Of a stretch of DNA of 52,372 nt, positions 3,136-37,722 are shown piece by piece; positions within the stretch are counted from its first letter, which is position 1; every line of letters starts with the position of its first letter. The translations under genes and the position numbers were made by a program. The stretch comes from Thiomicrospira cyclica (GTDB taxonomy: Bacteria; Pseudomonadota; Gammaproteobacteria; Thiomicrospirales; Thiomicrospiraceae): assembly GCA_020726325.1 (NCBI GenBank), contig DYST01000002.1:1-52372 (forward strand). The letters are read 5' to 3'. The notes beneath the pieces are model-generated. The model was given only the letters and a program-made list of their open reading frames with translations, did not search any database and had not been told where the DNA came from.

Positions 3136-4050
3136 TTAGGAATGTGAATCTGGCACAAATTTAGTGCGCCAGCGTGTCCAATTTTCCATCCAACCCAACG
3201 ATGCTACCAGCATCATCATTTGCGGTAGCACACCCAATAAAATATAAACCAGTATCAACCAACCCTTACCTGTACCGCGAACAAATACCCAGTGATGCAA
3301 AACAGCCAAGCCCTGTAGCATAAATGCCACCGTTAATAAGCCCAACATATCCTGAATTAACACCTGTTCAGGTAAAAACAGCACAGCGACAAATAAAGCA
3401 GCCAGCAACCAAGCCAAAGACGCGCCTAAGTCAAGCAGCCGAAACTGCTCACCTAAAGAGCCTGCTTCGTACAGATTTGTCTGCCACCAGCGGGCGAGAA
3501 ATAAGACTCCCAGCCAAACGACATACAAACCCATAAAAACCAACATGGTCAAAACACGCGGCATTTGTTCAAGCAAGAGACGACTCGCTTCGGGTTCGAT
3601 CGCGATGCCTTCCGCTTGCCACATAGCCAACAATTGCTGCACAAATTCCAACCATGCCGCTTCTGGTGAAGCCAACAACAGATAAACTGCTACTAAGCTA
3701 CCCAGTAAAACGACTGTCGCGACTTGAATCATCAGCGATAGAGAACGGGTTCTACCCAGCACTACCGCCAAGAAAAAAGCAGGCAACCAAAACTCCGCGC
3801 CGCTTAACAACAACGCATTGAGTGAACCAAAGGCAATGCTTGCAAAGCCACCCCCTAACAGGGTAGCCAAAAGTACACGCACACCAGGTTGTAAACCAGC
3901 CGCTAAGGTTACCAGCGCAATCACCGCGCCCGATAGGATGCCAACAGGTGAAAGAACAATCGTTGCTGCTCCTAACATAAAAGCCCATAACAAAGCCCGA
4001 TTTGGACTCTGCATAACCGCCTTAGCTAAAAACAACATGGTTAATACCAA
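3136..4050 (-). CDS. polytopic inner-membrane protein (DUF2232/YybS-like, by position and hydrophobicity)
   Basis: 304-aa ORF that is almost entirely hydrophobic helices. It occupies the rpsR-rplI slot, which holds a conserved membrane protein in Pseudomonas and yybS in Bacillus. The start is either TTG at 4050 or ATG at 4038. Confidence 0.6.
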   Translation of the reverse strand: MVLTMLFLAKAVMQSPNRALLWAFMLGAATIVLSPVGILSGAVIALVTLAAGLQPGVRVLLATLLGGGFASIAFGSLNALLLSGAEFWLPAFFLAVVLGRTRSLSLMIQVATVVLLGSLVAVYLLLASPEAAWLEFVQQLLAMWQAEGIAIEPEASRLLLEQMPRVLTMLVFMGLYVVWLGVLFLARWWQTNLYEAGSLGEQFRLLDLGASLAWLLAALFVAVLFLPEQVLIQDMLGLLTVAFMLQGLAVLHHWVFVRGTGKGWLILVYILLGVLPQMMMLVASLGWMENWTRWRTKFVPDSHS

Positions 4051-4805: not shown

Positions 4806-4845
4806 TTGACAATCACTCGTTTTTACATCATAATTATGAAATAAC
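4806..4845 (+). promoter_or_regulatory. sigma70-type promoter of rpmJ paralog with overlapping Zur-box-like inverted repeat
   Basis: TTGACA (4806-4811), 17 nt, CATAAT (4829-4834). The inverted repeat TTAT-gaa-ATAA within AATTATGAAATAAC (4832-4845) overlaps the -10 element. Confidence 0.45.
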
Positions 4846-4861
4846 TTATCGAGGTATCCAA

Positions 4862-4987
4862 ATGAAAATCCTATCTTCTCTAAAATCTGCAAAAACACGT
4901 CATAAAGATTGTCAAGTTGTTCGCCGCCGTGGCAAGGTTTATGTTATCTGCAAAACAAACCCAAAATTTAAAGCGCGTCAACGTTAA
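4862..4987 (+). CDS. rpmJ: 50S ribosomal protein L36, type B (YkgO-like paralog)
   Basis: 41-aa product [41 protein letters not shown] closely resembles E. coli YkgO. I trimmed the track ORF (4802) to the internal ATG that gives the canonical length. Confidence 0.9.
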
Positions 4988-5012
4988 TTTTTAGTTATGA
5001 CGGACTTTTTTC

Positions 5013-5042
5013 AAAAAAAGCGGCTTAAATGCCGCTTTTTTT
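5013..5042. terminator. bidirectional rho-independent terminator
   Basis: A7-GCGGC-ttaaat-GCCGC-T7. It serves rpmJ on the plus strand and the small minus-strand ORF that ends at 5046. Confidence 0.7.
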
Positions 5043-5045
5043 GCA

Positions 5046-5198
5046 TCATTGTGATACGGCTTCACCTTCTTTTTTATCGCTTTTCGGCAAGTGTCGATTA
5101 AAGTAAATATAAAGCAACCACATAATGCCGCCCACGACAGATACTGATACAATTGTAAATAATGTGGTTAAACCAAGTGCTTGCCAAATTTGTGTCAT
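5046..5198 (-). CDS. small single-pass membrane protein (50 aa), not in the ORF track
   Basis: My own translation is MTQIWQALGLTTLFTIVSVSVVGGIMWLLYIYFNRHLPKSDKKEGEAVSQ*. It has one clear TM helix plus a charged tail, an AAGG about 10 nt upstream of the ATG, and ends at the bidirectional terminator. Confidence 0.4.
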   Translation of the reverse strand: MTQIWQALGLTTLFTIVSVSVVGGIMWLLYIYFNRHLPKSDKKEGEAVSQ

Positions 5199-5307
5199 GA
5201 ATGATGTTACCTTACTTACAGGATAATTGGTTTTGGATTCTTAATAGGGTATTATATTCAAACAGGCTCTATTTAGGGATATAAAATTCGCATGGCTAGG
5301 AGTGGAC

Positions 5308-6330
5308 ATGCAAAAAAGAGATGAACATTTTTTTGAAGACGATGATCGCAATCGATTATTAGAAGCAATTGAACAACAAGCAAAAAGCCTGTCGATGGCA
5401 AGAGGCTCAAATCAACATCGATTGAGCGATTGGTTAAATGCCGCTGAGGAAGTTATGCCTGAAGTTAAAAAGCCTGCTGTGAAGCAAATGTCACTTGCCA
5501 ATAATCCAGAAAGCAAATCTAACACGGCTCAAATCATCTGGTTCTTGTTAGCAGGTACGCTTATGTTGACACTGGCTGGTGCTGGTGGATTTTCCTATTT
5601 TCAATTGACACAACAAATTGATAATTTAGAAAAAAACTCAAAAGCAATGATCGAACGTATTGCTGAACTTGAAAAAGCAGTACAAGAAAGTGATCAAAAA
5701 ATAACACGCCTGCAAGCTGCGGACATGAGCAATGGATTTCAAACAGAAGAGACTAAAACGGAACAAACTGTAAACAAATCATCGATGCAACAACTAGAAT
5801 CATTACTGGATGCGCGTTTTAAACAATTAATTGATGCATTGGATAATCGTACACAGCATAAAGCGGCGATGTCATCAATAACAACACAACCTGCTGTACA
5901 ACCGATGAATGTCTCGGTACCAACAATAAATCCTGTCCCAGCTGCTTCAATAGCTAATGTCAGCACACCAGTTGCACCACAAATTAACGAAATTAAAATC
6001 GCACAATCAAGCAGTGATAACACTCAAATTTCTGATGTGCAGCATGAGTGGCTACAATCCCTGCCCGCTGACGCACTGGTACTTCAACTCGGCAGCAATC
6101 CTAAAGCGGATGGTTTGGCTGCCATTGGTGCTAAAATTAAGAAAAATACAAATATGACGCATGTTATTAGTGTTAAAGCTAACGGCAGTACGCGTTATAT
6201 CTTAGTATACGGTGCTTTTACAACACGTGATGAAGCAAGACAAGCAGCTGATGACGTTAAAGCAGATATTGGTGTCACTGCATGGATTAGACGTGCAGCT
6301 GATGTAAAACTATTGCTCGAAAAGCGTTAG
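5308..6330 (+). CDS. SPOR domain-containing bitopic membrane protein
   Basis: AGGAG lies 5 nt upstream of the ATG at 5308 (the track ORF starts 2 codons earlier at a GTG). There is one TM helix (IIWFLLAGTLMLTLAGAGGFSYF), a coiled-coil/low-complexity linker, and a C-terminal SPOR-like module (LVLQLGS...YILVYGAFTTRDEARQAADDV). Confidence 0.75.
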   Translation: MQKRDEHFFEDDDRNRLLEAIEQQAKSLSMARGSNQHRLSDWLNAAEEVMPEVKKPAVKQMSLANNPESKSNTAQIIWFLLAGTLMLTLAGAGGFSYFQLTQQIDNLEKNSKAMIERIAELEKAVQESDQKITRLQAADMSNGFQTEETKTEQTVNKSSMQQLESLLDARFKQLIDALDNRTQHKAAMSSITTQPAVQPMNVSVPTINPVPAASIANVSTPVAPQINEIKIAQSSSDNTQISDVQHEWLQSLPADALVLQLGSNPKADGLAAIGAKIKKNTNMTHVISVKANGSTRYILVYGAFTTRDEARQAADDVKADIGVTAWIRRAADVKLLLEKR

Positions 6331-6915
6331 AAAATGATGATGCCATTGAGCGATGGTCTGTTCTAAGGCTTGTAAGCCTTGGTCGTTTTGAATAACACCA
6401 TTGGCAATTGCGAGACGTGTATCTCTTGTTGTTTGCGCTGCAATCATTGATTTCGCCAAGCTCTCTGTGATGCCATCTCGTGCCAGCAAACGCTGATATT
6501 GCTGTTCTGCATCACAATCAACCACTAAGACAAAATCAACGTATTCGGGTACACCTGTTTCTACTAATAGCGGAATGACTACTAGCGCGTAGTCACTGCA
6601 ACAAGATGATAGCTGTTCTATCATTCGTTGCTGAATCAACGGATGCAACAATGCATTCACCCATTCACGCTCAGTTGGATTGCCAAAAATGCAATTTCTG
6701 AGATAACCTCGGTTTAATGCGCCATCGCTCAATAAAACAGCCAAACCAAAATGCGACGCAATTTGCGCCAATGCAGGCGTACCAATGGCGACAACTTCAC
6801 GCGCAATCACATCGGCATCCACAACACAAACACCATAAAGTTCGCTAAACAAGCGACTAACCGTACTTTTTCCCGACGCAATACCACCCGTTAAAGCAAT
6901 AATCAATTGAGACAA
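6310..6915 (-). CDS. coaE: dephospho-CoA kinase
   Basis: 201-aa ORF with the N-terminal P-loop IALTGGIASGKST. Length and layout are typical of CoaE. Confidence 0.9.
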   Translation of the reverse strand: MSQLIIALTGGIASGKSTVSRLFSELYGVCVVDADVIAREVVAIGTPALAQIASHFGLAVLLSDGALNRGYLRNCIFGNPTEREWVNALLHPLIQQRMIEQLSSCCSDYALVVIPLLVETGVPEYVDFVLVVDCDAEQQYQRLLARDGITESLAKSMIAAQTTRDTRLAIANGVIQNDQGLQALEQTIAQWHHHFLTLFEQ

Positions 6916-29686: not shown

Positions 29687-29705
29687 CGCGATACCCTCAT
29701 CTTAA

Positions 29706-29726
29706 CCTTCTCCCAGAGGGAGAAGG
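29706..29726. repeat. G/C-rich hairpin (REP-like) just after rnfE
   Basis: CCTTCTCCC-aga-GGGAGAAGG, a perfect 9-bp stem with a 3-nt loop and no T-tract. Confidence 0.55.
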
Positions 29727-29751
29727 AATCTCGCAGTAAAGCGCCACTACC

Positions 29752-29788: not shown

Positions 29789-29817
29789 TTAGACTTGTGA
29801 GTCTAATGCACTAAAAT
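29789..29817 (+). promoter_or_regulatory. candidate promoter of the efflux operon with overlapping palindromic operator
   Basis: TTAGAC (29789-29794), 17 nt, TAAAAT (29812-29817). The palindrome TTAGACT-tgtg-AGTCTAA (29789-29806) covers the -35 element and the spacer. Confidence 0.4.
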
Positions 29818-29830
29818 AAATAGGTATGAT

Positions 29831-31156
29831 ATGAGTAGAAAAAAAATAGGATATATTGCCTTTATCTGCAGTTTTGCATTAGTCGCTTCGGCTCATGCGA
29901 GCACAGGTTTAATGACGTTGTTTGAGCAAGCGCAAACGCAAGATGCCAAGCTAGCACAAGCAAAAGCACAATTACAGGCAGATCAAGAAATCATCAATCA
30001 AGCAAGAGCGGTATTGATGCCGAATCTTGCTGGTCAAGTTGCTTATCAAAGCAATGACTATTCAAAGCCTGTATTTATGGCAGCAAAAGAAAGCCTACAA
30101 GAAAAACTTGTGTTATCTCAATCTTTATTCGATGCTAGTGCTTGGGCAAGGTATGAACAGGCAAAGGGATTGCTAGAGCAATCCTTGTTGCAATATCAAC
30201 TAAGCGAGCAAGATTTAATATTACGTCTTAGTCAGGCTTATTTTGATGTGTTACGGGCGCAACAGTTACTCGCATTGACAGTTGCGCTGAAAGAATCTAC
30301 GGGTAAACAGCGCGATAAAATCAGTGAAGGGGTGCGTGTTGGCTTAACCAACCCTGTTGATTTGTTAGAAGTACAAGCGCGTTATGATTTAGCAGAGTCA
30401 GATGAAATCAATGGACAGAATCAGCTTTCTATTGCGACTGAATCATTAGCGCGTCTGATTCGCGCAGCAACTGTTCCTAACTTAAAAATACTTACCTTAG
30501 ATACCGCGCTTAGTTCTTTAACTGAAAAGCCAACTATTTTAGCAGATCGCTATGCAAGTCAAAACTTAAGTGTCAAGTTAAATCAGCAAAAATTACTGAT
30601 TAGTGAGCATGAAGTAGATGCACAACGAGCAGGTCACTATCCCACCTTAGCACTGCAAGCGACTGTTGCTAATCAAGATGGCTTATTAAGCAGCACAACA
30701 AGTACAAGCCCTTATCCTTACCAAATGAATAGTATTGGTTTGGTATTAAATGTACCGCTATATGCTGGTGGCATGGTGAGTAGCCAAGTACGCAAAGCAG
30801 AATATTTACGCACTGCCAATCAAGAAGGATTGCGTAATAGCAAAGAACAGGCTCGACTCGACATTCTGACACTAGCGAAAACCGTTACTTTGGGTCCAAG
30901 CCGTCTTATGGCGCTGCGCAATGCGGTTAAGTCGAGCGATGCTTTTTTGGCAGCAGCAGAAGAGGGTAATCGCGTGGGCATGAAAGATTTGGTCGATGTG
31001 CTCAATGCTCGTACCCAATTATTAAAGGCAAAACAAGATTTAGCCAATGCGTTATATGACGATGTCATGAATCGTTTGCGCTTAAAGTCAGCGCAAGGTC
31101 AATTATCTGTTGATGATTTAGCCGCAATTGAAGCTTATTTGCGTGATTCGAGTTAG
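29831..31156 (+). CDS. TolC-family outer membrane efflux protein
   Basis: 441-aa ORF with a signal peptide (...LVASAHA/ST) and two repeats of the coiled-coil/beta-barrel OEP pattern. It is the first gene of the pump operon. Confidence 0.85.
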   Translation: MSRKKIGYIAFICSFALVASAHASTGLMTLFEQAQTQDAKLAQAKAQLQADQEIINQARAVLMPNLAGQVAYQSNDYSKPVFMAAKESLQEKLVLSQSLFDASAWARYEQAKGLLEQSLLQYQLSEQDLILRLSQAYFDVLRAQQLLALTVALKESTGKQRDKISEGVRVGLTNPVDLLEVQARYDLAESDEINGQNQLSIATESLARLIRAATVPNLKILTLDTALSSLTEKPTILADRYASQNLSVKLNQQKLLISEHEVDAQRAGHYPTLALQATVANQDGLLSSTTSTSPYPYQMNSIGLVLNVPLYAGGMVSSQVRKAEYLRTANQEGLRNSKEQARLDILTLAKTVTLGPSRLMALRNAVKSSDAFLAAAEEGNRVGMKDLVDVLNARTQLLKAKQDLANALYDDVMNRLRLKSAQGQLSVDDLAAIEAYLRDSS

Positions 31157-31166
31157 GGGAGTCATC

Positions 31167-31367
31167 ATGAGTTTAGCGGAAGTTGTTTATCAAACCATTA
31201 AGCCATTGCCAGAAGACATGATTCGTGAGGTGCTTGATTTTGCCTTGTTTGTGCAGCAAAAGGCAGAAAAAAAAGAATGGAAAAACTTAATCGATGCACA
31301 GACGCTGAGTTTTTCTGATTGGGACAACTTAGAAGATGAGGTCTGGAATCATGCTCCAACCTTGTGA
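31167..31367 (+). CDS. type II antitoxin, DUF2281-like
   Basis: 66-aa product MSLAEVVYQTIKPLPEDMIREVLDFALFVQQK... with an acidic C-terminus. GGGGAG lies upstream of the ATG at 31167 (the track ORF is trimmed from 31128). It overlaps the toxin gene by 17 nt. Confidence 0.7.
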   Translation: MSLAEVVYQTIKPLPEDMIREVLDFALFVQQKAEKKEWKNLIDAQTLSFSDWDNLEDEVWNHAPTL

Positions 31368-31692
31368 TTTAGTGTTGATTCCTTTTCCATTTACGGATTT
31401 ATCTGCGACAAAAAAACGTCCCGTTTTGGTGCTAAAATCACCGAACAGTCAGGGTGATTTTATGGCGGTACAAGTGACCTCTCAATCTGGCTACGTGGAT
31501 TCTGTTGTTGTGTCTGCTGATGATCTTGTTTTAGGTTTTTTACCAAAAGTAAGTTATGTGCGTACCAGTAAGTTAATTACCTTAAATCAAACACTTGTCG
31601 TTGCATCTATTGGTAAAATTTCTGCTACTGCTTTTGCGTCTATTCATCAAGAAGTTTGTAATCAAATGACTTGTTTTTCTTGCGAAGGATAA
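31351..31692 (+). CDS. type II toxin, PemK/MazF-like
   Basis: 113-aa product MLQPCDLVLIPFPFTDLSATKKRPVLVL..., the SH3-like PemK N-terminal signature. GAGG lies 9 nt upstream of the start. Confidence 0.75.
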   Translation: MLQPCDLVLIPFPFTDLSATKKRPVLVLKSPNSQGDFMAVQVTSQSGYVDSVVVSADDLVLGFLPKVSYVRTSKLITLNQTLVVASIGKISATAFASIHQEVCNQMTCFSCEG

Positions 31693-31695
31693 ATT

Positions 31696-32838
31696 GTGTC
31701 TAAAAAATTAGTATGGATTGCGGTTGGTGTTGTGATTGCCGCTGGTGCTTTCGTTGCGATTAAAAGCAAACAAGCTAAGAATGATGCGTTTGTCGCGCCC
31801 GTGATTGCACCGATTTTGGTATCATCAATGACTGCTAATCTTGCCCCCGTTACCTTAACACAACCAACGCAAGTAACCGTAAAAGCCGAAATTGAGCAGT
31901 TACTAACCGCGCGTTTAACCGCGCAAGTCGTTTCTTTGCCTGTGCGTGAAGGTGATGTAGTTAAGGCTGGCGACCTGTTAGCTCAGTTGGATGATAAATC
32001 GAGTCGTGCTGATCTGTCGGTCGCTGATGCTCAATTAGCACAATACAAACTTGAGCAAGCGAGCATTAAAGATCAAGTTGATGCGGCTAAACTCGATTGG
32101 CAAGCACAAAAAGATACCTTGTCGCGTTTACAAAAGCTTGCCTTAGTTAAAGCAGCAAGCGAAGATCAAATTCAGCAACAAAGTGTACGTGTCGCACAAG
32201 CAGAGCAACGCTTGACTGCTGCGCAATCGCAGTATAAAGCCTACGATGAACTCTTAACCGCACGTAAAAAACAAGCCGAAGCCGCCAAAGGTGCCTTGGG
32301 TTATGTGCAGCTTAAAGCGATGCAAGCGGGTATTGTCAGCGAACGCTTAGTGCAAGAAGGCGACATTGTCACGGCAGGTACGCCACTCATTCGTTTGGTA
32401 GGAGAAGGCGGTGATCGTCGCTTATTGGTGTCGTTACCTGTCGATGGACAAAAGCCTGCTGGATTGATGTGGCAAGACAAGCGCTTATCACTGATTGCTT
32501 GGCCAAGAGCCAATGCGCAAGGCTTATTGACATTTGAAGCACGTGTTCGTGATGATGCTTTGATACCGAATCAACAACTTGCCTTACCATTAGCAGTCTA
32601 TTCGGGAGAAGGGATTGCCTTAGCATCCAATTGTTTTGTCCCCCACTCGCTCAAAGAGGCACAAGTATTAATCAACAACCAAGGCAAGGTCGATGTTGTT
32701 CCTGTCGTGCTTGATGCCGTTGGACAAGAGGGAGCGGTAACACAAAATCCGCGTTTACTCGGACAAGAAATATTATGTGCCTCGTCTGATATTTTAATTC
32801 GCATTATGGCAGGCAGAAATTATAAGGTGGCTGAATAA
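31696..32838 (+). CDS. efflux RND periplasmic adaptor (HlyD/MFP family)
   Basis: 380-aa ORF with a GTG start 3 nt after the toxin stop; its SD GAAGGA lies in the toxin's last codons. It has an N-terminal anchor, lipoyl-like halves (VREGDVVKAGDLLAQLD ... GIVSERLVQEGDIVTAGTPLIRL) and a central coiled-coil hairpin. Confidence 0.85.
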   Translation: MSKKLVWIAVGVVIAAGAFVAIKSKQAKNDAFVAPVIAPILVSSMTANLAPVTLTQPTQVTVKAEIEQLLTARLTAQVVSLPVREGDVVKAGDLLAQLDDKSSRADLSVADAQLAQYKLEQASIKDQVDAAKLDWQAQKDTLSRLQKLALVKAASEDQIQQQSVRVAQAEQRLTAAQSQYKAYDELLTARKKQAEAAKGALGYVQLKAMQAGIVSERLVQEGDIVTAGTPLIRLVGEGGDRRLLVSLPVDGQKPAGLMWQDKRLSLIAWPRANAQGLLTFEARVRDDALIPNQQLALPLAVYSGEGIALASNCFVPHSLKEAQVLINNQGKVDVVPVVLDAVGQEGAVTQNPRLLGQEILCASSDILIRIMAGRNYKVAE

Positions 32839-32840
32839 TA

Positions 32841-34016
32841 ATGCTGCTGGATAATAATTATCAATTGCTAGAGAAACAAAGGCAAAATGAACTTTTTCCA
32901 GAACTTGTTTTGCCACAAGAACATCGCTTTCCGAAACCGCAATATTTAGGTGCTAAATATGTTCTTAAAGATTGGATAGCAGGTTTTTTTCCAGCTAATG
33001 CCAAGAAAGCACTGGATGGTTTTGGCGGCACACAAAGCATCTCATTTATGATGAAGCAACGGGGGCTGCAAACAATTACCAATGATTTGCTTGCATTCAA
33101 TCATCAAATTGGTTTGTCGCTCATTGAAAATAAAGAGTATCAGTTATCACAAAGTGAGTTGATGGCGCTATTTGAAACAAATAACAAACCATCAGATTGG
33201 TCATTAGTAGCACAAAATTTTAGTGGTTTATTTTTTGATGAAGCAACAGCGAAATTGTTAGATAACCTACGTTGGAATATTGAAAACTTATCTAATCCGT
33301 ATCAAAAAGCATTCGCATTAACCATCATCAATAGAGCGATGATGCGCAAAACGACGATGGGGCATTTTGCGCATACACGAGCATTAGTTTATGCAGCAGA
33401 TCCTGAACGATTAAAAAGAAATCGTAGTTTAGCGCGTCCAATAAAAGAATTAGCTCTTGAATTATTGCCAGAATATAATGCCGCTATTTTTGATAACAAA
33501 CAAGAAAACCAGAGTTTTTGTGGTGATGTTTTAGAGCTGTTACCACAAATCAGTAATATTGACTTTGCTTATTTTGACCCACCTTATTGTGATAGTCATT
33601 CAGATTATCAGTCTTTTTATCACCTGCCAGAAACTTATACAGAGTATTGGCGAGATAAACAGTTTATTAATCAAACAAAGCGTTATGATCCACCAAGATA
33701 TAGTGGATTTGATAAAAAAAGAGATATCTTGTCATCGTTTGAAGAGCTATTCCGACGTTCAGAAAATATTCCTGTTTGGTTAATTAGCTACAATGATCGA
33801 AGTTATCCTAAAGCAGAAGAGCTGGCAAGGATGATTGCTAAATACAAAGATGTGACTATAGAGGCGAAAGAATACAGTGAGGGGCGTGGTGGCAAGGGTA
33901 GCGTTGCAGGCAGTAGAGAGGTTTTATTTGTCTGTAAGCCAAAAACACAAGTTAGTGTTGCAATTGCATGGAGCAAAGAAATGGCAAGTGGTATAATCAC
34001 TGGTCGAGTATTTTGA
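32841..34016 (+). CDS. N6-adenine DNA methyltransferase, D12/Dam-like (alpha motif order)
   Basis: 391-aa ORF with YLGAKY, DGFGGT (motif I) and then FDPPYC (motif IV) about 190 aa later, followed by WLISYND. It starts 2 nt after the adaptor stop. Confidence 0.8.
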   Translation: MLLDNNYQLLEKQRQNELFPELVLPQEHRFPKPQYLGAKYVLKDWIAGFFPANAKKALDGFGGTQSISFMMKQRGLQTITNDLLAFNHQIGLSLIENKEYQLSQSELMALFETNNKPSDWSLVAQNFSGLFFDEATAKLLDNLRWNIENLSNPYQKAFALTIINRAMMRKTTMGHFAHTRALVYAADPERLKRNRSLARPIKELALELLPEYNAAIFDNKQENQSFCGDVLELLPQISNIDFAYFDPPYCDSHSDYQSFYHLPETYTEYWRDKQFINQTKRYDPPRYSGFDKKRDILSSFEELFRRSENIPVWLISYNDRSYPKAEELARMIAKYKDVTIEAKEYSEGRGGKGSVAGSREVLFVCKPKTQVSVAIAWSKEMASGIITGRVF

Positions 34017-34630
34017 TTGAACAATTATTTAAAAAACATCCTGTTGTATTGCCTACCGTTGGTCAGGTAAAAAAGGTAGACTTTTTTGTTGATGGAGTTC
34101 CGTTCGATCTTAAGGTAACTTATTTACCTGCTAACTTTATTGAAAAGAAGCGCAAGGAACTCGGATTAAAGCCTGAGTTAACAGAGCTCAAGCAAGCTGC
34201 AAAGCGTTTAAGTATTGTTTTTAATAAGGAATCAAAGCACGATGATATTTATTATGAAATTGCGCAAAAAATGCAAGATAAGGGTACGCAAGATTGCCTT
34301 AATGCTTTAGCAGCAATAAAAAAAATAAGGCTTGATATTTTGAATGAAGTTCGAGCAAATCCAAAATCATTAATTCAGAATCTTTATGAAGAGCAGGGAG
34401 AAATGCGTTTTGATGCCTCTAATCGATTGTTTTTGGTGTTAGTAGATTCGGCTGATTTTGATAATTCATGGAAGTTAAAACGGAACATGGACGCGTTAAG
34501 CCCAACAATTAGAGAGTATCTTGATAATTTTAAGTCAAAAGATATGGATGATTTGCGTATTAGTTTTCGTTATAAAGCGAAAGCGCAAGAGTTCAAAGTG
34601 CTTAGTGATGTTATCTTTGTAGTGCGTTAG
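33968..34630 (+). CDS. putative type II restriction endonuclease (PD-DxK), family not recognised
   Basis: 220-aa ORF, or 205 aa from the TTG at 34013 that overlaps the MTase stop. It has E18...D38-x8-D47-L-K49 (KKVDFFVDGVPFDLKV). It is coupled to the MTase and shares its lower-GC composition. Confidence 0.5.
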   Translation: MEQRNGKWYNHWSSILIEQLFKKHPVVLPTVGQVKKVDFFVDGVPFDLKVTYLPANFIEKKRKELGLKPELTELKQAAKRLSIVFNKESKHDDIYYEIAQKMQDKGTQDCLNALAAIKKIRLDILNEVRANPKSLIQNLYEEQGEMRFDASNRLFLVLVDSADFDNSWKLKRNMDALSPTIREYLDNFKSKDMDDLRISFRYKAKAQEFKVLSDVIFVVR

Positions 34631-34647
34631 ATAAAGGAATTAATAGG

Positions 34648-37600
34648 ATGTTCACTTGGTTTTTCAATCGCCCGTGGATTACAGGCGCGATGCTGTTATT
34701 GATGTCGATTATGGGTGTGATTGGCTACAACCTCATGCCGCGCAATTTGTATCCCGATGCCGAACGTCCGCAAGTGATGATTATTACCCAATTCCCAGGG
34801 GCATCTGCCGAAATTATGGCGCAGCAAATCTCACGCATGATGGAGCGTGAACTGTATAGTCTTAGTGGTATTCGTTTAGTACAAAGCACCAATCTTGATG
34901 GTTTTGCCGTTATTCGTACTGAGTTTGGCTATGAAAAAGGGTTAAACGGCGCACTTGCCGATGTTACAAACGCCCTTGAACGTATTCGTGCTAAGTTGCC
35001 AGCGGGTGTTTTACCCTATTCACTCTATCCGATGGGTAACTTTACCCCACCAGCATTGGTTTTGGCGGTCACGCCTAAACCAGAGTCAGGATTGAGTTTA
35101 GCGCAGACACGTTATTTAGTGGATAGTGATATTCGTCCAGCCTTTTTAAAACAATCTAATATTGCCAATGTCGAAATCTTTGGTGGTTGGCAATCAACCA
35201 TTCGTATTGAGATTAATCCGAATAAACTGGTTGCACTGGGATTGAGCTTTGCTCAAGTAGCCGATGCAATTAAACAATGGCAAGCACAATTACCAATGGG
35301 CTCTTTATTGGGTGACGGACAGTCGTGGACATTCATTATTCCGGGTGAAAAAGCACACATTGACCAGCTTGCATTTTTGCCCGTCACACAGCAACTGAAT
35401 CTTGGACAAATTGCACATATCGAATGGCGCGAGCAAGACAGATACAGTGCCTATATCGGTAATGGCAACCCAGCAATTGCTTTGTCGATTCAACGCCCAC
35501 CGGGAGGAACCATTGCACAAGCATACAATGCGGCTATGTCGGTGTTACCCGAGGTACAAGCTAAATATCCCCTATTAAACATTAGCGTTACCGATACGCA
35601 AATGGATGTCGTTGTTCGTGCCAATGACAATATGTTTAATGCCTTATTAGAAGCTGTCTTGTTTGTTTCACTGGTGATGATGATTTTTTTAGCCAACTGG
35701 CGTGCTGTTGCAACGGCATTACTGTCTTTACCGTTAGTTTTTTTGGGAACAATGGCAATTTTGTGGTTATTTGGCAAAGAGCTAAATTTATTTGTCACCA
35801 CTGGGGTGATTCTTGCCTTAGGTATGCTGGTTGATGATGCGGTTGTGGTGCTTGAAAACATCGAACGGCATTTAGAGGAATTGCACGAAGATATTAATGT
35901 CGCGGTGCGTGCTGGTATGAGCGAGATTGTCTCGCCTGTATGGGTTGGTAGTTTGGCAACCGTAGCAGTTTTGACCCCATTAATGTTTGTTGGTGACTAT
36001 ACCGAGCATGTCTTTAGTCATCTCATTTTTCCTGTTGTTATCGCGGTTTTTGTCTCCTATTTGGTGTCGATTACCTTTATTCCGCGCTTGGTGTGGTTTT
36101 GGTATCGCAATGGCATTCCGCCTAAAAACAAGATTGAGCGTGTGTTAGAAGCACATTATCAACGCCGCTGGGCACCGATTGCAGGTGCTTATATTGGCGG
36201 TTTACGTTGGGCAATGTTGGCGCGTTGGCGACGTTGGCTACTCATTATTGGTGCTTTTCTTATTTTGGTTATCAGTGGCAAAATCATTATGCCGACCATT
36301 GGTCAAGATGCTTTGCCTGCTGCAGATATGGGCATTGTGCAAATGCGCGTTCGCTTTGGTGAACAAGACAAGGTTAGCGATGTTGAGCGTAAGCTGTTGC
36401 CCGTACTCGAAACCTTAAACAAAGACCCATTGATGGTACGTTATGGTGTAACCATTGGTGCTGAAGCAGGTGTTACCTCTTTAGGGAGTGCTGCTTTGGC
36501 ATCTGAAGCTGTGATTATGGCACATTTTACCTCACGCTTAGAACGTGACCAAACCAGTTGGCAAATCGCTGATGAATGGCGTGAAAAATTGGCGCAAATG
36601 CCAGGTGTTGTCGCTGTCGATGCATATGATTTTGGTAATACCATGACCAGCACGATTAAAGCCCCCATTACCTTGCGTTTAAGTAGCGATGACTGGCACA
36701 ATTTACCACAAGCAGCCGAGCAAGTCATGGCAGCGGTGCAAGGCGTGCGCGGTGTGACATCTGTATCTTCGAATTGGTCTGGTTTTACGCAACAAGCACA
36801 ACTCAAACTCAAGCCTGAACAATTGCTTAAATTTGGGCTAACACCTGAGAAATTAGCTGGACAATTACCATTACGCGGTGTACAGGCTGCAAATTTAACG
36901 CGCTGGTCAGCAAGTGAGTCTTTACCGATTCGTCTCATGCTTGATGCGCCTTATAACGAACAGCCACAGACCTTAATGATGTACCCTGTACAAATTCCTG
37001 CAGGCACCAGTGTGCCCTTAAGTGCCTTAGCTGATATTGAAATGGTGCAACAGCCAATGTTACTGGCAACAGACGAATTGCAATATACCCTTGATTTATT
37101 GGTTTATCGCGATCATCGCGCCTTAAACCATTTACTCGATGATATTGATCTTGCACTAAAATCTGTTTCATTGCCGACAGGGGTGACTTGGCATGATGCG
37201 GGCGACAATGCGCAAGGTCTAGAAGCCAAGGCTCGAATGATGAATGGCTTAGGTGTCGGTATTTTGTTGTTGACGATTATCCTTATTGCTGCTTTTTCGA
37301 GTATTCGTATGGCGCTATTGACTGTTGCCATCTTACCCTTAGCTGCAATTGGTGGTTTGTGGGGGCTGATGTTTTTTGGTAAAGCATTTGCCCTGCCTGC
37401 CTTGCTAGGTATCATTTTGCTGTTTTCAATTATTGTTAAGAACGGTATTTTGTTGATGGAGTTTATCCATAAGCATGAGCATCAGATGTCTGCGGTGCAA
37501 GCAGCAGAAGAAAGCATCAAACTCCGTTTTCGTCCGATTTTGATGACGGCTCTGGCAACCATTGCGGGTATGATTCCCATTGCTTTGGAGCGTTCAATTG

Positions 37601-37722
37601 GATTAGAGCGGTTATCACCGTTATCGGATGTTGCTATTTTTGGTTTATTGGTCGGAACGGTGCTCAGTCTACTACTCTTACCAATGCTCTATTTATGGGG
37701 TACTACTCAGACTGCCGAGTAA
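34648..37722 (+). CDS. RND efflux transporter permease (AcrB/HAE-like)
   Basis: 1024-aa ORF with 12-TM architecture, two large periplasmic loops, and TM4 GMLVDDAVVVLENIERH. Confidence 0.9.
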   Translation: MFTWFFNRPWITGAMLLLMSIMGVIGYNLMPRNLYPDAERPQVMIITQFPGASAEIMAQQISRMMERELYSLSGIRLVQSTNLDGFAVIRTEFGYEKGLNGALADVTNALERIRAKLPAGVLPYSLYPMGNFTPPALVLAVTPKPESGLSLAQTRYLVDSDIRPAFLKQSNIANVEIFGGWQSTIRIEINPNKLVALGLSFAQVADAIKQWQAQLPMGSLLGDGQSWTFIIPGEKAHIDQLAFLPVTQQLNLGQIAHIEWREQDRYSAYIGNGNPAIALSIQRPPGGTIAQAYNAAMSVLPEVQAKYPLLNISVTDTQMDVVVRANDNMFNALLEAVLFVSLVMMIFLANWRAVATALLSLPLVFLGTMAILWLFGKELNLFVTTGVILALGMLVDDAVVVLENIERHLEELHEDINVAVRAGMSEIVSPVWVGSLATVAVLTPLMFVGDYTEHVFSHLIFPVVIAVFVSYLVSITFIPRLVWFWYRNGIPPKNKIERVLEAHYQRRWAPIAGAYIGGLRWAMLARWRRWLLIIGAFLILVISGKIIMPTIGQDALPAADMGIVQMRVRFGEQDKVSDVERKLLPVLETLNKDPLMVRYGVTIGAEAGVTSLGSAALASEAVIMAHFTSRLERDQTSWQIADEWREKLAQMPGVVAVDAYDFGNTMTSTIKAPITLRLSSDDWHNLPQAAEQVMAAVQGVRGVTSVSSNWSGFTQQAQLKLKPEQLLKFGLTPEKLAGQLPLRGVQAANLTRWSASESLPIRLMLDAPYNEQPQTLMMYPVQIPAGTSVPLSALADIEMVQQPMLLATDELQYTLDLLVYRDHRALNHLLDDIDLALKSVSLPTGVTWHDAGDNAQGLEAKARMMNGLGVGILLLTIILIAAFSSIRMALLTVAILPLAAIGGLWGLMFFGKAFALPALLGIILLFSIIVKNGILLMEFIHKHEHQMSAVQAAEESIKLRFRPILMTALATIAGMIPIALERSIGLERLSPLSDVAIFGLLVGTVLSLLLLPMLYLWGTTQTAE

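Follow-up and report, generated by a model that had tools for sequence, protein, structure and literature searches.

How did a toxin-antitoxin (TA) pair and a restriction-modification (R-M) pair come to lie, almost without spacers, inside a TolC-adaptor-RND (resistance-nodulation-division) efflux operon, and do pump and modules work together? The question is raised by contig DYST01000002.1 of Thiomicrospira cyclica, of which a stretch of 52,372 nt, here called the window, was analysed. Seven open reading frames (ORFs), all on the + strand, encode in this order a TolC-family outer-membrane factor (OMF), an antitoxin, a toxin, a HlyD-type adaptor, a DNA methyltransferase (MTase), the partner of the MTase (ORF6) and an RND permease, as shown in Table 1. 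Comparison with related loci (designated below by L numbers) makes it probable, taking the explanation as a whole, that the locus is a tripartite efflux operon whose three pump genes are native to an uncultured sulfur bacterium of the Thiotrichales, that both intercistronic junctions of the operon have been colonised by compact two-gene selfish modules, the one upstream of the adaptor being a predicted type II TA pair with a DUF2281 antitoxin and a PemK/MazF-like toxin, and that pump and modules do not form one functional unit. No link between the function of the pump and the modules was found in the analysis. The locus neatly illustrates a behaviour of selfish modules that the literature already describes, and is not a new combined system.

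Empty and filled junctions of the pump operon

A search for the same pump with empty junctions, which the preliminary description of the locus had proposed, recovered such loci, including one (L012) that is empty at both. The OMF-adaptor junction was found empty in L001, L002, L003, L004, L010 and L012, where the OMF stop lies 12-24 nt from the adaptor start, and the adaptor-RND junction is empty, with abutting or overlapping genes, in L004, L006, L007, L009, L010, L011 and L012. The closest relative is L012, with ~90-92% nucleotide identity and a synonymous divergence (dS) of ~0.4, and its contig derives from the same sample as that of the filled L015. Among the pump orthologues recovered at 57-74% adaptor identity, all those with readable junctions are without both modules. 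The low guanine-cytosine (GC) content of the inserts points in the same direction, being 0.37-0.40 in the TA pair and 0.35-0.37 in the MTase cassette against 0.465 in the adaptor and 0.45-0.47 over the adaptor and RND genes. Together with homologous cassettes in unrelated contexts (see below), the empty orthologues and the low GC of the inserts bear out one of the two alternatives of the preliminary description, namely that two addiction/defence modules had colonised the efflux operon.

The empty state can be read directly at the adaptor-RND junction. In L012 the two genes meet in a 1-nt stop/start overlap, TAATG (GCTGAATAATGTTCAC / AAGGTGGCTGAATAATGTTCAC), and the outgroups L004 and L010 have a TGATG overlap of the same type as the TAA/ATG of L012, which indicates that the empty state is ancestral. 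Where L012 is continuous, the window reads GCTGAATAAT, then the insert (AATG...TAGG), then ATGTTCAC; the adaptor gene ends in ...AAGGTGGCTGAATAAT and is directly followed by AATGCTG... of the MTase, while the right end of the insert, ...GATAAAGGAATTAATAGG, is directly followed by ATGTTCAC of the RND gene. Since the junction sequence of L012, AAGGTGGCTGAATAATGTTCAC, is split around the insert in the window (AAGGTGGCTGAATAATAATGCTG... ...AAAGGAATTAATAGGATGTTCAC), the MTase now uses the Shine-Dalgarno sequence AAGGTG, which in the empty allele belongs to the RND gene, and a new ribosome-binding site for that gene (AAGGA/AGG) comes from the right end of the insert. At the OMF-adaptor junction, the empty allele of L001 reads AGTTAAGGGGATTAAATCGTG, and in the window the antitoxin is preceded by TTAGGGGAG and the adaptor by GAAGGATAAATTGTG. 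A GGGGA-type site is present on both sides of the TA pair, and the stop codon of the toxin sits in the equivalent of the ancestral pump spacer.

The ORF listing and a direct reading of the sequence agree with the preliminary description on the seven co-directional ORFs and on the distances between them, which are +10, -17, +3, +2, -49 (or -4) and +17 nt. The Shine-Dalgarno sequences GAAGGA (31684-31689), preceding the adaptor GTG at 31696, and AAGGTG (32825-32830), preceding the MTase ATG at 32841, were likewise found where it had placed them, inside the 3' end of the preceding gene, and a consensus scan detected no terminator-like site at any junction, as it had also claimed. Promoter-like matches between 29000 and 38500 are not above chance (19, against 23.5 +/- 3.8 in shuffled sequences), and the promoter proposed by the preliminary description (29790-29817) is one of the 19. 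Obligatory co-transcription of pump and modules from the pump promoter is plausible because no spacer and no terminator intervene and the ribosome-binding sites of the pump are taken over or duplicated.

The TA pair has entered the junction between channel and adaptor, and the D12-class MTase with its putative endonuclease the junction between adaptor and permease, the resident ribosome-binding sites being taken over or duplicated by the inserts. For what followed, a course of events can be proposed. As the junctions seem to leave the modules no room for promoters or terminators of their own, transcription reading through from the pump promoter (for which Table 1 gives a candidate), together with translational coupling, would account for their expression. 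Selection on the pump would let only non-polar, co-directional insertions persist, and strains may exchange filled and empty alleles through homologous recombination in the conserved pump sequences on either side. The frame of the relic ORF6 may stay open partly since a premature stop would expose untranslated RNA and cause polarity on the RND gene.

Table 1. Positions of the genes, inserts and candidate promoter of the efflux operon in the window.
Feature	Position	Strand	Remarks
TolC-family OMF	29831-31156	+	native pump gene 1; PF02321, 6e-44
DUF2281-type antitoxin (predicted), 66 aa	31167-31367	+	PF10047
PemK/MazF-type toxin (predicted), 113 aa	31351-31692	+	PF02452; in-frame alternative ATG 31336
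HlyD-type periplasmic adaptor	31696-32838	+	native pump gene 2; GTG start
D12-class N6-adenine DNA MTase, 391 aa	32841-34016	+	PF02086
ORF6, remnant of the MTase partner	33968-34630	+	220 aa from ATG 33968; 205 aa from TTG 34013
RND permease, 1024 aa	34648-37722	+	native pump gene 3; PF00873
TA insertion, 539 nt	31157-31695	+	OMF stop to adaptor GTG; compared with L001, L002, L003, L004 and L012
MTase/nuclease cassette insertion, 1809 nt	32839-34647	+	adaptor stop to RND ATG
Deletion joint, MTase/nuclease	33986-33989	+	MTase homology stops, homology to the nuclease C-terminal part starts
Candidate pump promoter, TAGACT-16-TAAAAT	29790-29817 (site 29789-29817)	+	consensus scan, 9/12 matches

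The pump itself was recognised at all three genes. The OMF reaches 247.9 bits with TIGR01844 (cut-off 225), the adaptor matches HlyD_3 and Biotin_lipoyl_2, each above the Pfam gathering threshold (GA), and the permease matches ACR_tran (PF00873) with 540.5 bits over model positions 1-1018 of 1021. No named RND subfamily (AcrB, MdtBC, CusA etc.) could be attached to the RND permease or the adaptor, as the NCBIfam equivalog and subfamily scores are all far under their cut-offs (478 bits for the permease with RND_permease_2, cut-off 1250), indicating a divergent pump. A total of 32 close homologues of the adaptor, 57-100% identical over the aligned part and a few of them fragments, were obtained, and all came from metagenomes and metagenome-assembled genomes labelled Thiotrichales, Piscirickettsiaceae or Thiomicrospira; the 'Francisella' labels on several assembled genomes are automated and were not relied on, and a second metagenome scan added two loci only. 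The OMF orthologues of L001-L004 and L010 are 73-82% identical and that of L012 92% (nucleotide), while the RND orthologues show 71-94% amino acid identity (71-86% in one comparison, and 94% to L012 in another). In L004, L010 and L012 the OMF, adaptor and RND genes are contiguous.

The operon is flanked by rnfCDGE upstream and by genes for a hybrid sensor kinase and an acyltransferase/acyl-ligase downstream, and this synteny is preserved in relatives. A palindrome, TAGACTTGTGAGTCTA (29789-29806), overlaps the candidate -35 element of the pump promoter and is kept together with its flanks in L003, where it precedes the empty-site pump and differs by one change; it looks like a repressor operator. 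No regulator gene adjoins the operon, and none of the TetR type was seen in the interval from rnfE to the pump. The whole window gave zero matches in Rfam and tRNA scans, and hence no tRNA-linked island or known riboregulator. A perfect hairpin with an 8-bp stem (CTTCTCCC-AGA-GGGAGAAG, 29700-29730), without a T-tract, was also observed between rnfE and the pump promoter, and could be an element similar to repetitive extragenic palindromes or the end of the rnf transcript.

Four states of the adaptor-RND junction were observed among the compared loci: empty, filled with the R-M cassette, filled with a repeat resembling a miniature inverted-repeat transposable element (MITE) with duplication of TAATG, and filled with a small ORF. 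The MITE-like repeat, a dispersed element, is about 150 nt long and lies exactly in this junction in L001 (11145-11294) and L008 (11232-11380). Its ends are inverted repeats (CCTCTAAAAA/TTTTTAGAGG), a GGAAGGG/CCCTTCC hairpin lies inside it, and the stop/start overlap is duplicated on its two sides, reading TAATG in L001 and CCATAATG/CCATAGTG in L008; partial copies occur in L002 (906-1032, 8898-8947 and 12427-12526) and L006 (16557-16627). In L002 the junction is occupied by a 223-nt insert (5291-5513) with a 61-codon ORF (MSIEQQREIGLESL...), for which neither a match in PHROGs or NCBIfam nor similar DNA in the other fetched loci was found. The repeated occupation of this pump junction, which behaves as a recurrent site of insertion, is a second lead from this work, beside the partner family described below.

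The inserted genes

Both members of the TA pair score above their Pfam gathering thresholds, the antitoxin with DUF2281 (31.7 bits, GA 26.5) and the toxin with PemK_toxin (26.7 bits, GA 23.1). The toxin further matches PHROG 1936, 'MazF-like growth inhibitor' (1.3e-10), and has no match in NCBIfam or PADLOC. The antitoxin gene is the upstream one and overlaps the toxin gene by 17 nt. Among 25 homologues of the toxin, several of which are annotated as MazF by the Joint Genome Institute (JGI), the block PFPF.DLSA.K.RPV is invariant, and the window toxin retains it intact as PFPFTDLSATKKRPVL. The pairing of DUF2281 with PemK was also found in L023, L024 and L029. Elsewhere the toxin homologues are accompanied by a small upstream partner gene and form stand-alone cassettes, for example in a stretch rich in TA and abortive infection (Abi) genes in L020-L022 and with a 324-nt spacer ahead in L023. 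The antitoxin ATG of the window follows the OMF stop after a gap of only 10 nt, and zero promoter-like matches were detected on the + strand between 31000 and 31166, though a promoter may lie within the OMF coding sequence. The spacer before the antitoxin is 66 nt in L029 against 10 nt in the window, and may be a leftover of the cassette's own promoter region.

The MTase matches MethyltransfD12 (PF02086) with 49.2 bits, the PADLOC model MTase_II with 4.5e-49 and a PHROG DNA MTase with 1.5e-56. Alignment with L016-L018 shows its motifs GFGG and FDPPYCDSH to be invariant, and the gene is apparently intact, judging by its full length in the alignment with the MTases of L017/L018 and by the presence of GFGG and DPPY. 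Profile searches of the small genes, as suggested by the preliminary description, therefore confirmed the TA pair and the MTase above curated thresholds; ORF6 matched nothing in Pfam, NCBIfam, PADLOC, PHROGs or the PDB sequences, whether as a single sequence or as a profile. The word composition of the whole window (1-52372) was also recorded: CCGG and GGCC occur about nine times less often than a second-order Markov model predicts (6 against 52 expected, and 14 against 122 expected, respectively), and GATC stands at 0.56 of its expectation. The scarcity of CCGG and GGCC points to long-standing HpaII/MspI-like and HaeIII-like restriction pressure, unrelated to the adenine methylase of the operon.

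The partner belongs to a large family. A total of 1848 homologues of ORF6 were retrieved, nearly all of them 365-373 aa in length, without a Pfam domain and named only 'hypothetical'; the best 120 of the 1848 are 59-100% identical to the window fragment, and full-length members from very different lineages share 56-85% mutual identity. A D12 MTase is the immediate upstream neighbour of the partner in every retrieved context with a visible upstream gene. The family maintains a near-invariant Glu and an invariant Asp...Asp-Leu-Lys (VDFF...FDLK), which correspond to E18...D38...D47-L-K49 in the window. In two AlphaFold2 (AF2) models, with confidence scores (pLDDT) of 90.5 and 89.6, these residues lie on a helix and then three strands, and this modelled alpha-beta-beta-beta layout is what a PD-(D/E)xK core would be expected to give. 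A Foldseek comparison of the two models with PDB yielded nothing significant; the best relevant match is the restriction enzyme entry 3ndh (E = 1, probability 0.25, 43 columns). From the motif, the modelled layout and the neighbourhood, the partner is likely to be a type II restriction endonuclease. The 'PD-DxK nuclease' of the preliminary description is not supported beyond the E..D..DxK motif and the gene neighbourhood, and has no profile or solved-structure match behind it.

It is rather doubtful that the partner is something other than a restriction endonuclease, the pair then being a different two-gene system with a DNA-binding or regulatory partner, or a defence system of another type. 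This would suit the lack of significant matches for 53 family members and the two AF2 models (in Pfam, NCBIfam, PADLOC, PHROGs and PDB) and the high identity that members of very different lineages keep over their full length. Against it stand the E, D and DxK residues, invariant or nearly so on a single alpha-beta-beta-beta unit, the constant position directly downstream of a D12 MTase that matches Type II models, the recurrence of N-terminally shortened copies, as a toxic nuclease would predict, and, in one copy, a long duplication of the target, a typical trait of R-M units (PMC2853133). A partner of the restriction endonuclease kind remains the preferred reading, and this unannotated, widespread family (1848 database matches), probably a new type II restriction endonuclease, is a lead in its own right.

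The window copy of the partner is 220 aa long against about 368 aa in the family, so that the R-M pair is incomplete. It aligns only to the C-terminal ~213 residues of the family, with homology beginning at WYNHWSSILIE. Homology to other MTases stops at ...SKEMAS (about nt 33986), where that to the C-terminal part of the nuclease starts; nucleotide homology to L025 starts at 33989, and upstream of this point L025 runs on as nuclease sequence (KNALDRYLVDRFIKVYTSFDELTSKFDGEISRAVQGYVLC) that is absent from the window. The window lineage has thus lost the stop codon that the MTase gene originally had, together with the start of the nuclease gene and its first codons, about 155 in number. The lost part is an all-helical domain in the AF2 model and was not found elsewhere in the window. 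The ATG at 33968 has no Shine-Dalgarno sequence and is probably a fortuitous start, while the TTG at 34013 overlaps the TGA of the MTase (TTGA) and could allow coupled re-initiation. We infer that what is left of the R-M module here amounts to a solitary methylase and a relic. The family has repeatedly given rise to shortened or rearranged copies, P0111 and the copy of L016 being examples, and recurrent decay of this kind is expected of a toxic nuclease gene. The L016 locus (4829-6837) holds a decayed cassette: its MTase has lost the first ~80 residues and runs in frame into the N-terminal domain of the partner, whose ORF begins anew at an internal Met and gives 278 aa.

Outside the pump, the MTase and its partner were found co-directionally between purL and purQ (L017/L018), with 12 nt to the downstream gene, and between a family 2 glycosyltransferase (GT2) gene and asnB (L026-L028 and L033-L038), where the upstream gap is 2-19 nt and the downstream one 0 nt; L026 is the exception, asnB being set apart there from the cassette by a duplicated target segment and a 105-codon ORF. 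In L016 they lie between the genes for a Por-secretion-tail protein and a DUF1415 protein. A directly following downstream gene starts 0-14 nt from the pair in these loci (L016-L018, L026-L028 and L033-L038), and on a further contig an OsmC gene follows a related partner gene at a distance of 25 nt. Across five distinct contexts the cassette is co-directional with both neighbours where these are readable, and the next gene is 0-25 nt away except in L026. The L026 cassette is flanked by an 80-nt direct repeat, 86% identical (3836-3915 and 6113-6192), which comes from the 3' end of the upstream glycosyltransferase gene and is a textbook 'insertion with long target duplication' as described for R-M units. 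The cassette family gave no tblastn match in plasmid and phage collections.

Age of the insertions and competing explanations

Diverged versions of both inserts were detected in a second pump clade. Four samples contributed L029-L032, in which the TA pair sits at the same junction, with 80% amino acid identity for the antitoxin and 76% for the toxin, and L025 carries at the same pump junction a nuclease that is 86% identical (amino acids), with the same 16/17-nt right-hand spacer (ATAAAGGATTAATAGG). The 5' end of the adaptor gene of L029-L032 is 95% nucleotide-identical to L001 and L002, both of which are empty there, and the RND gene of L025 shows 96% and 94% nucleotide identity to L001 and L002, respectively. 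In both pump clades, some members carry the cassettes and others do not. By the Nei-Gojobori method, dS and the ratio of nonsynonymous to synonymous divergence (omega) are 1.45 and 0.08 for the antitoxin (against L029), 1.78 and 0.10 for the toxin, and 1.04 and 0.08 for the C-terminal part of the nuclease, while dS is 1.43 in the adaptor flank and 1.72 in the RND flank. The dS of the cassettes is close to that of the flanks, so that the cassettes are about as old as the split of the two pump clades, and the omega values of 0.08-0.10 indicate purifying selection for most of the time since then. A recent insertion, considered on account of the empty L012, was dropped, since L025 and L029 show the same inserts in the other clade with dS close to that of the flanks. 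L029 (1-1065) is a mosaic around its TA insert, the 3' end of the OMF gene being ~81% identical to L001/L002 and the 5' end of the adaptor gene 95%, a pattern suggestive of homologous recombination in the pump flanks as the route of transfer.

The explanations that compete with a colonised pump operon can be weighed on this basis. Misassembly, which the preliminary description had named as a danger to its reading, is excluded at the junctions by three independent contigs from three other JGI samples, which hold the same string and the same junctions at 99.81-99.91% identity. A chimera in which the small genes were misjoined to pump fragments is vanishingly improbable, for only the odd arrangement and the GC drops speak for it, and diverged versions of both filled junctions exist in L025 and L029-L032. 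The modules might, in turn, stabilise the pump operon through post-segregational killing and so keep the filled allele in the population, as the preliminary description implied in writing that they lock the operon in place. That type II R-M and TA modules can stabilise the DNA linked to them is established (reviewed in PMC2993543), the TA pair is conserved and has remained intact, and filled alleles persist in two clades; such a lock is nevertheless unlikely, as empty and filled alleles occur together in one sample and in both clades, L001 and L002 are empty though ~95% identical to the flanks of the filled L029 and L025, and the restriction gene has lost its start and N-terminal domain, with which R-M addiction has probably been lost as well. 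The other alternative of the preliminary description, efflux and defence expressed as one unit, would mean that selection has united efflux, toxin-driven growth arrest and DNA methylation/restriction in one stress/defence regulon that is adaptive for the host. The long retention of the modules under purifying selection (omega 0.08-0.10), junctions that are tight and translationally coupled in appearance, and the same insertions in two pump clades would all fit it. We regard it as very unlikely, because the closest relative L012 and all distant orthologues recovered (57-74% identity, where readable) are without both modules, the same methylase cassette occurs in purine-biosynthesis (purL/purQ), glycosyltransferase/asnB and other strings, the TA homologues stand alone elsewhere, and the nuclease gene is decaying in the window.

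Several observations weigh against colonisation by selfish modules as proposed here. The best sigma-70-like match on the + strand, TTGACA-18-GATGAT (32527-32556, 10/12), lies inside the adaptor gene, 285 nt 5' of the MTase start, and may either drive the cassette and the RND gene from within or be a chance match. The nuclease identity of the partner has no profile or fold match, 3ndh (E = 1) being the best relevant one. No flanking direct repeat, long target duplication or inverted repeats were found around either insert of the window; the GGGGA/GAAGGA and ATAAGG/ATAAAGG similarities at the sides of the inserts are too short to test and count as a possibility only. The truncated ORF6 is still open and its C-terminal domain models confidently, so residual activity may exist. 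Finally, a divergence of the cassettes equal to that of the clades could also mean one ancient insertion followed by several precise losses; this is possible and is disfavoured because L012 shares the 1-nt overlap with the outgroups L004 and L010. Colonisation of both junctions, with alleles exchanged afterwards, is retained as the probable account.

A further extension of this account is fairly unlikely, namely that the MTase and its partner, and perhaps the DUF2281/PemK pair, are promoter-less 'operon-hitchhiker' cassettes that are delivered specifically to co-directional stop/start junctions, over and above any sieving by selection. It is suggested by the cassettes taking the resident ribosome-binding site and supplying a new one, by their co-directional position in five contexts with the next gene 0-25 nt away (L026 excepted), by the four states of the adaptor-RND junction and by the absence of the cassette family from plasmid and phage collections.

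Comparison with known systems

The locus offers a clean natural example, with empty alleles for comparison, of selfish two-gene modules inside an essential-looking operon that was left unbroken: the modules land in a junction, seize the ribosome-binding site, give the displaced gene a new one and, presumably, ride the host promoter. It is also a warning that tight operon linkage is not to be taken as functional coupling.

The pump resembles tripartite RND efflux systems of the AcrAB-TolC and MdtABC type in consisting of an OMF, a membrane-fusion adaptor and a 12-transmembrane RND permease, co-directional and tightly coupled in the empty alleles. It differs in that its RND and adaptor proteins score far below every NCBIfam equivalog and subfamily cut-off and that no TetR-type regulator was seen between rnfE and the pump. 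The predicted TA pair shares with the type II systems MazEF and PemIK a small upstream antitoxin gene overlapping that of a PemK-fold toxin of about 110 aa, both above the Pfam gathering thresholds, and its homologues elsewhere are bicistronic stand-alone cassettes. However, the antitoxin of the window is of the DUF2281 type and not MazE or PemI, the 10-nt gap leaves no space for the usual autoregulated promoter/operator, and the last codons and the stop of the toxin merge with the ancestral pump spacer. Integron cassettes are likewise compact, promoter-less, co-directional modules, often of TA or R-M type, that are driven by an upstream promoter. An attC recombination site is at least ~57 nt in length, whereas the junctions in the window are 2-17 nt and the flanks are housekeeping pump genes; an integron origin was rejected because the 3- and 17-nt downstream spacers are too short for attC and no integrase lies beside the operon (a formal attC model was not run).

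The nearest parallel is with Type II R-M units inserted in operon-like gene clusters, in which target repeats often span start or stop sites and the target genes stay intact (Furuta, Abe & Kobayashi 2010, PMC2853133); insertion of R-M into such clusters has also been reviewed (PMC2993543). The statement of the preliminary description that the architecture had not been described is therefore wrong for R-M units. As in the published cases (PMC2853133), a compact pair of modification and restriction genes without a linked transposase or integrase lies between co-directional host genes, both neighbouring genes are intact, related genomes have the empty site, and a target duplication, of 80 nt, is present in the homologous cassette of L026. 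The window departs from these cases in that its insert has no long target duplication or inverted repeats, the partner comes from an unannotated family and its restriction gene is 5'-deleted, and an unrelated TA module fills the other junction of the same operon.

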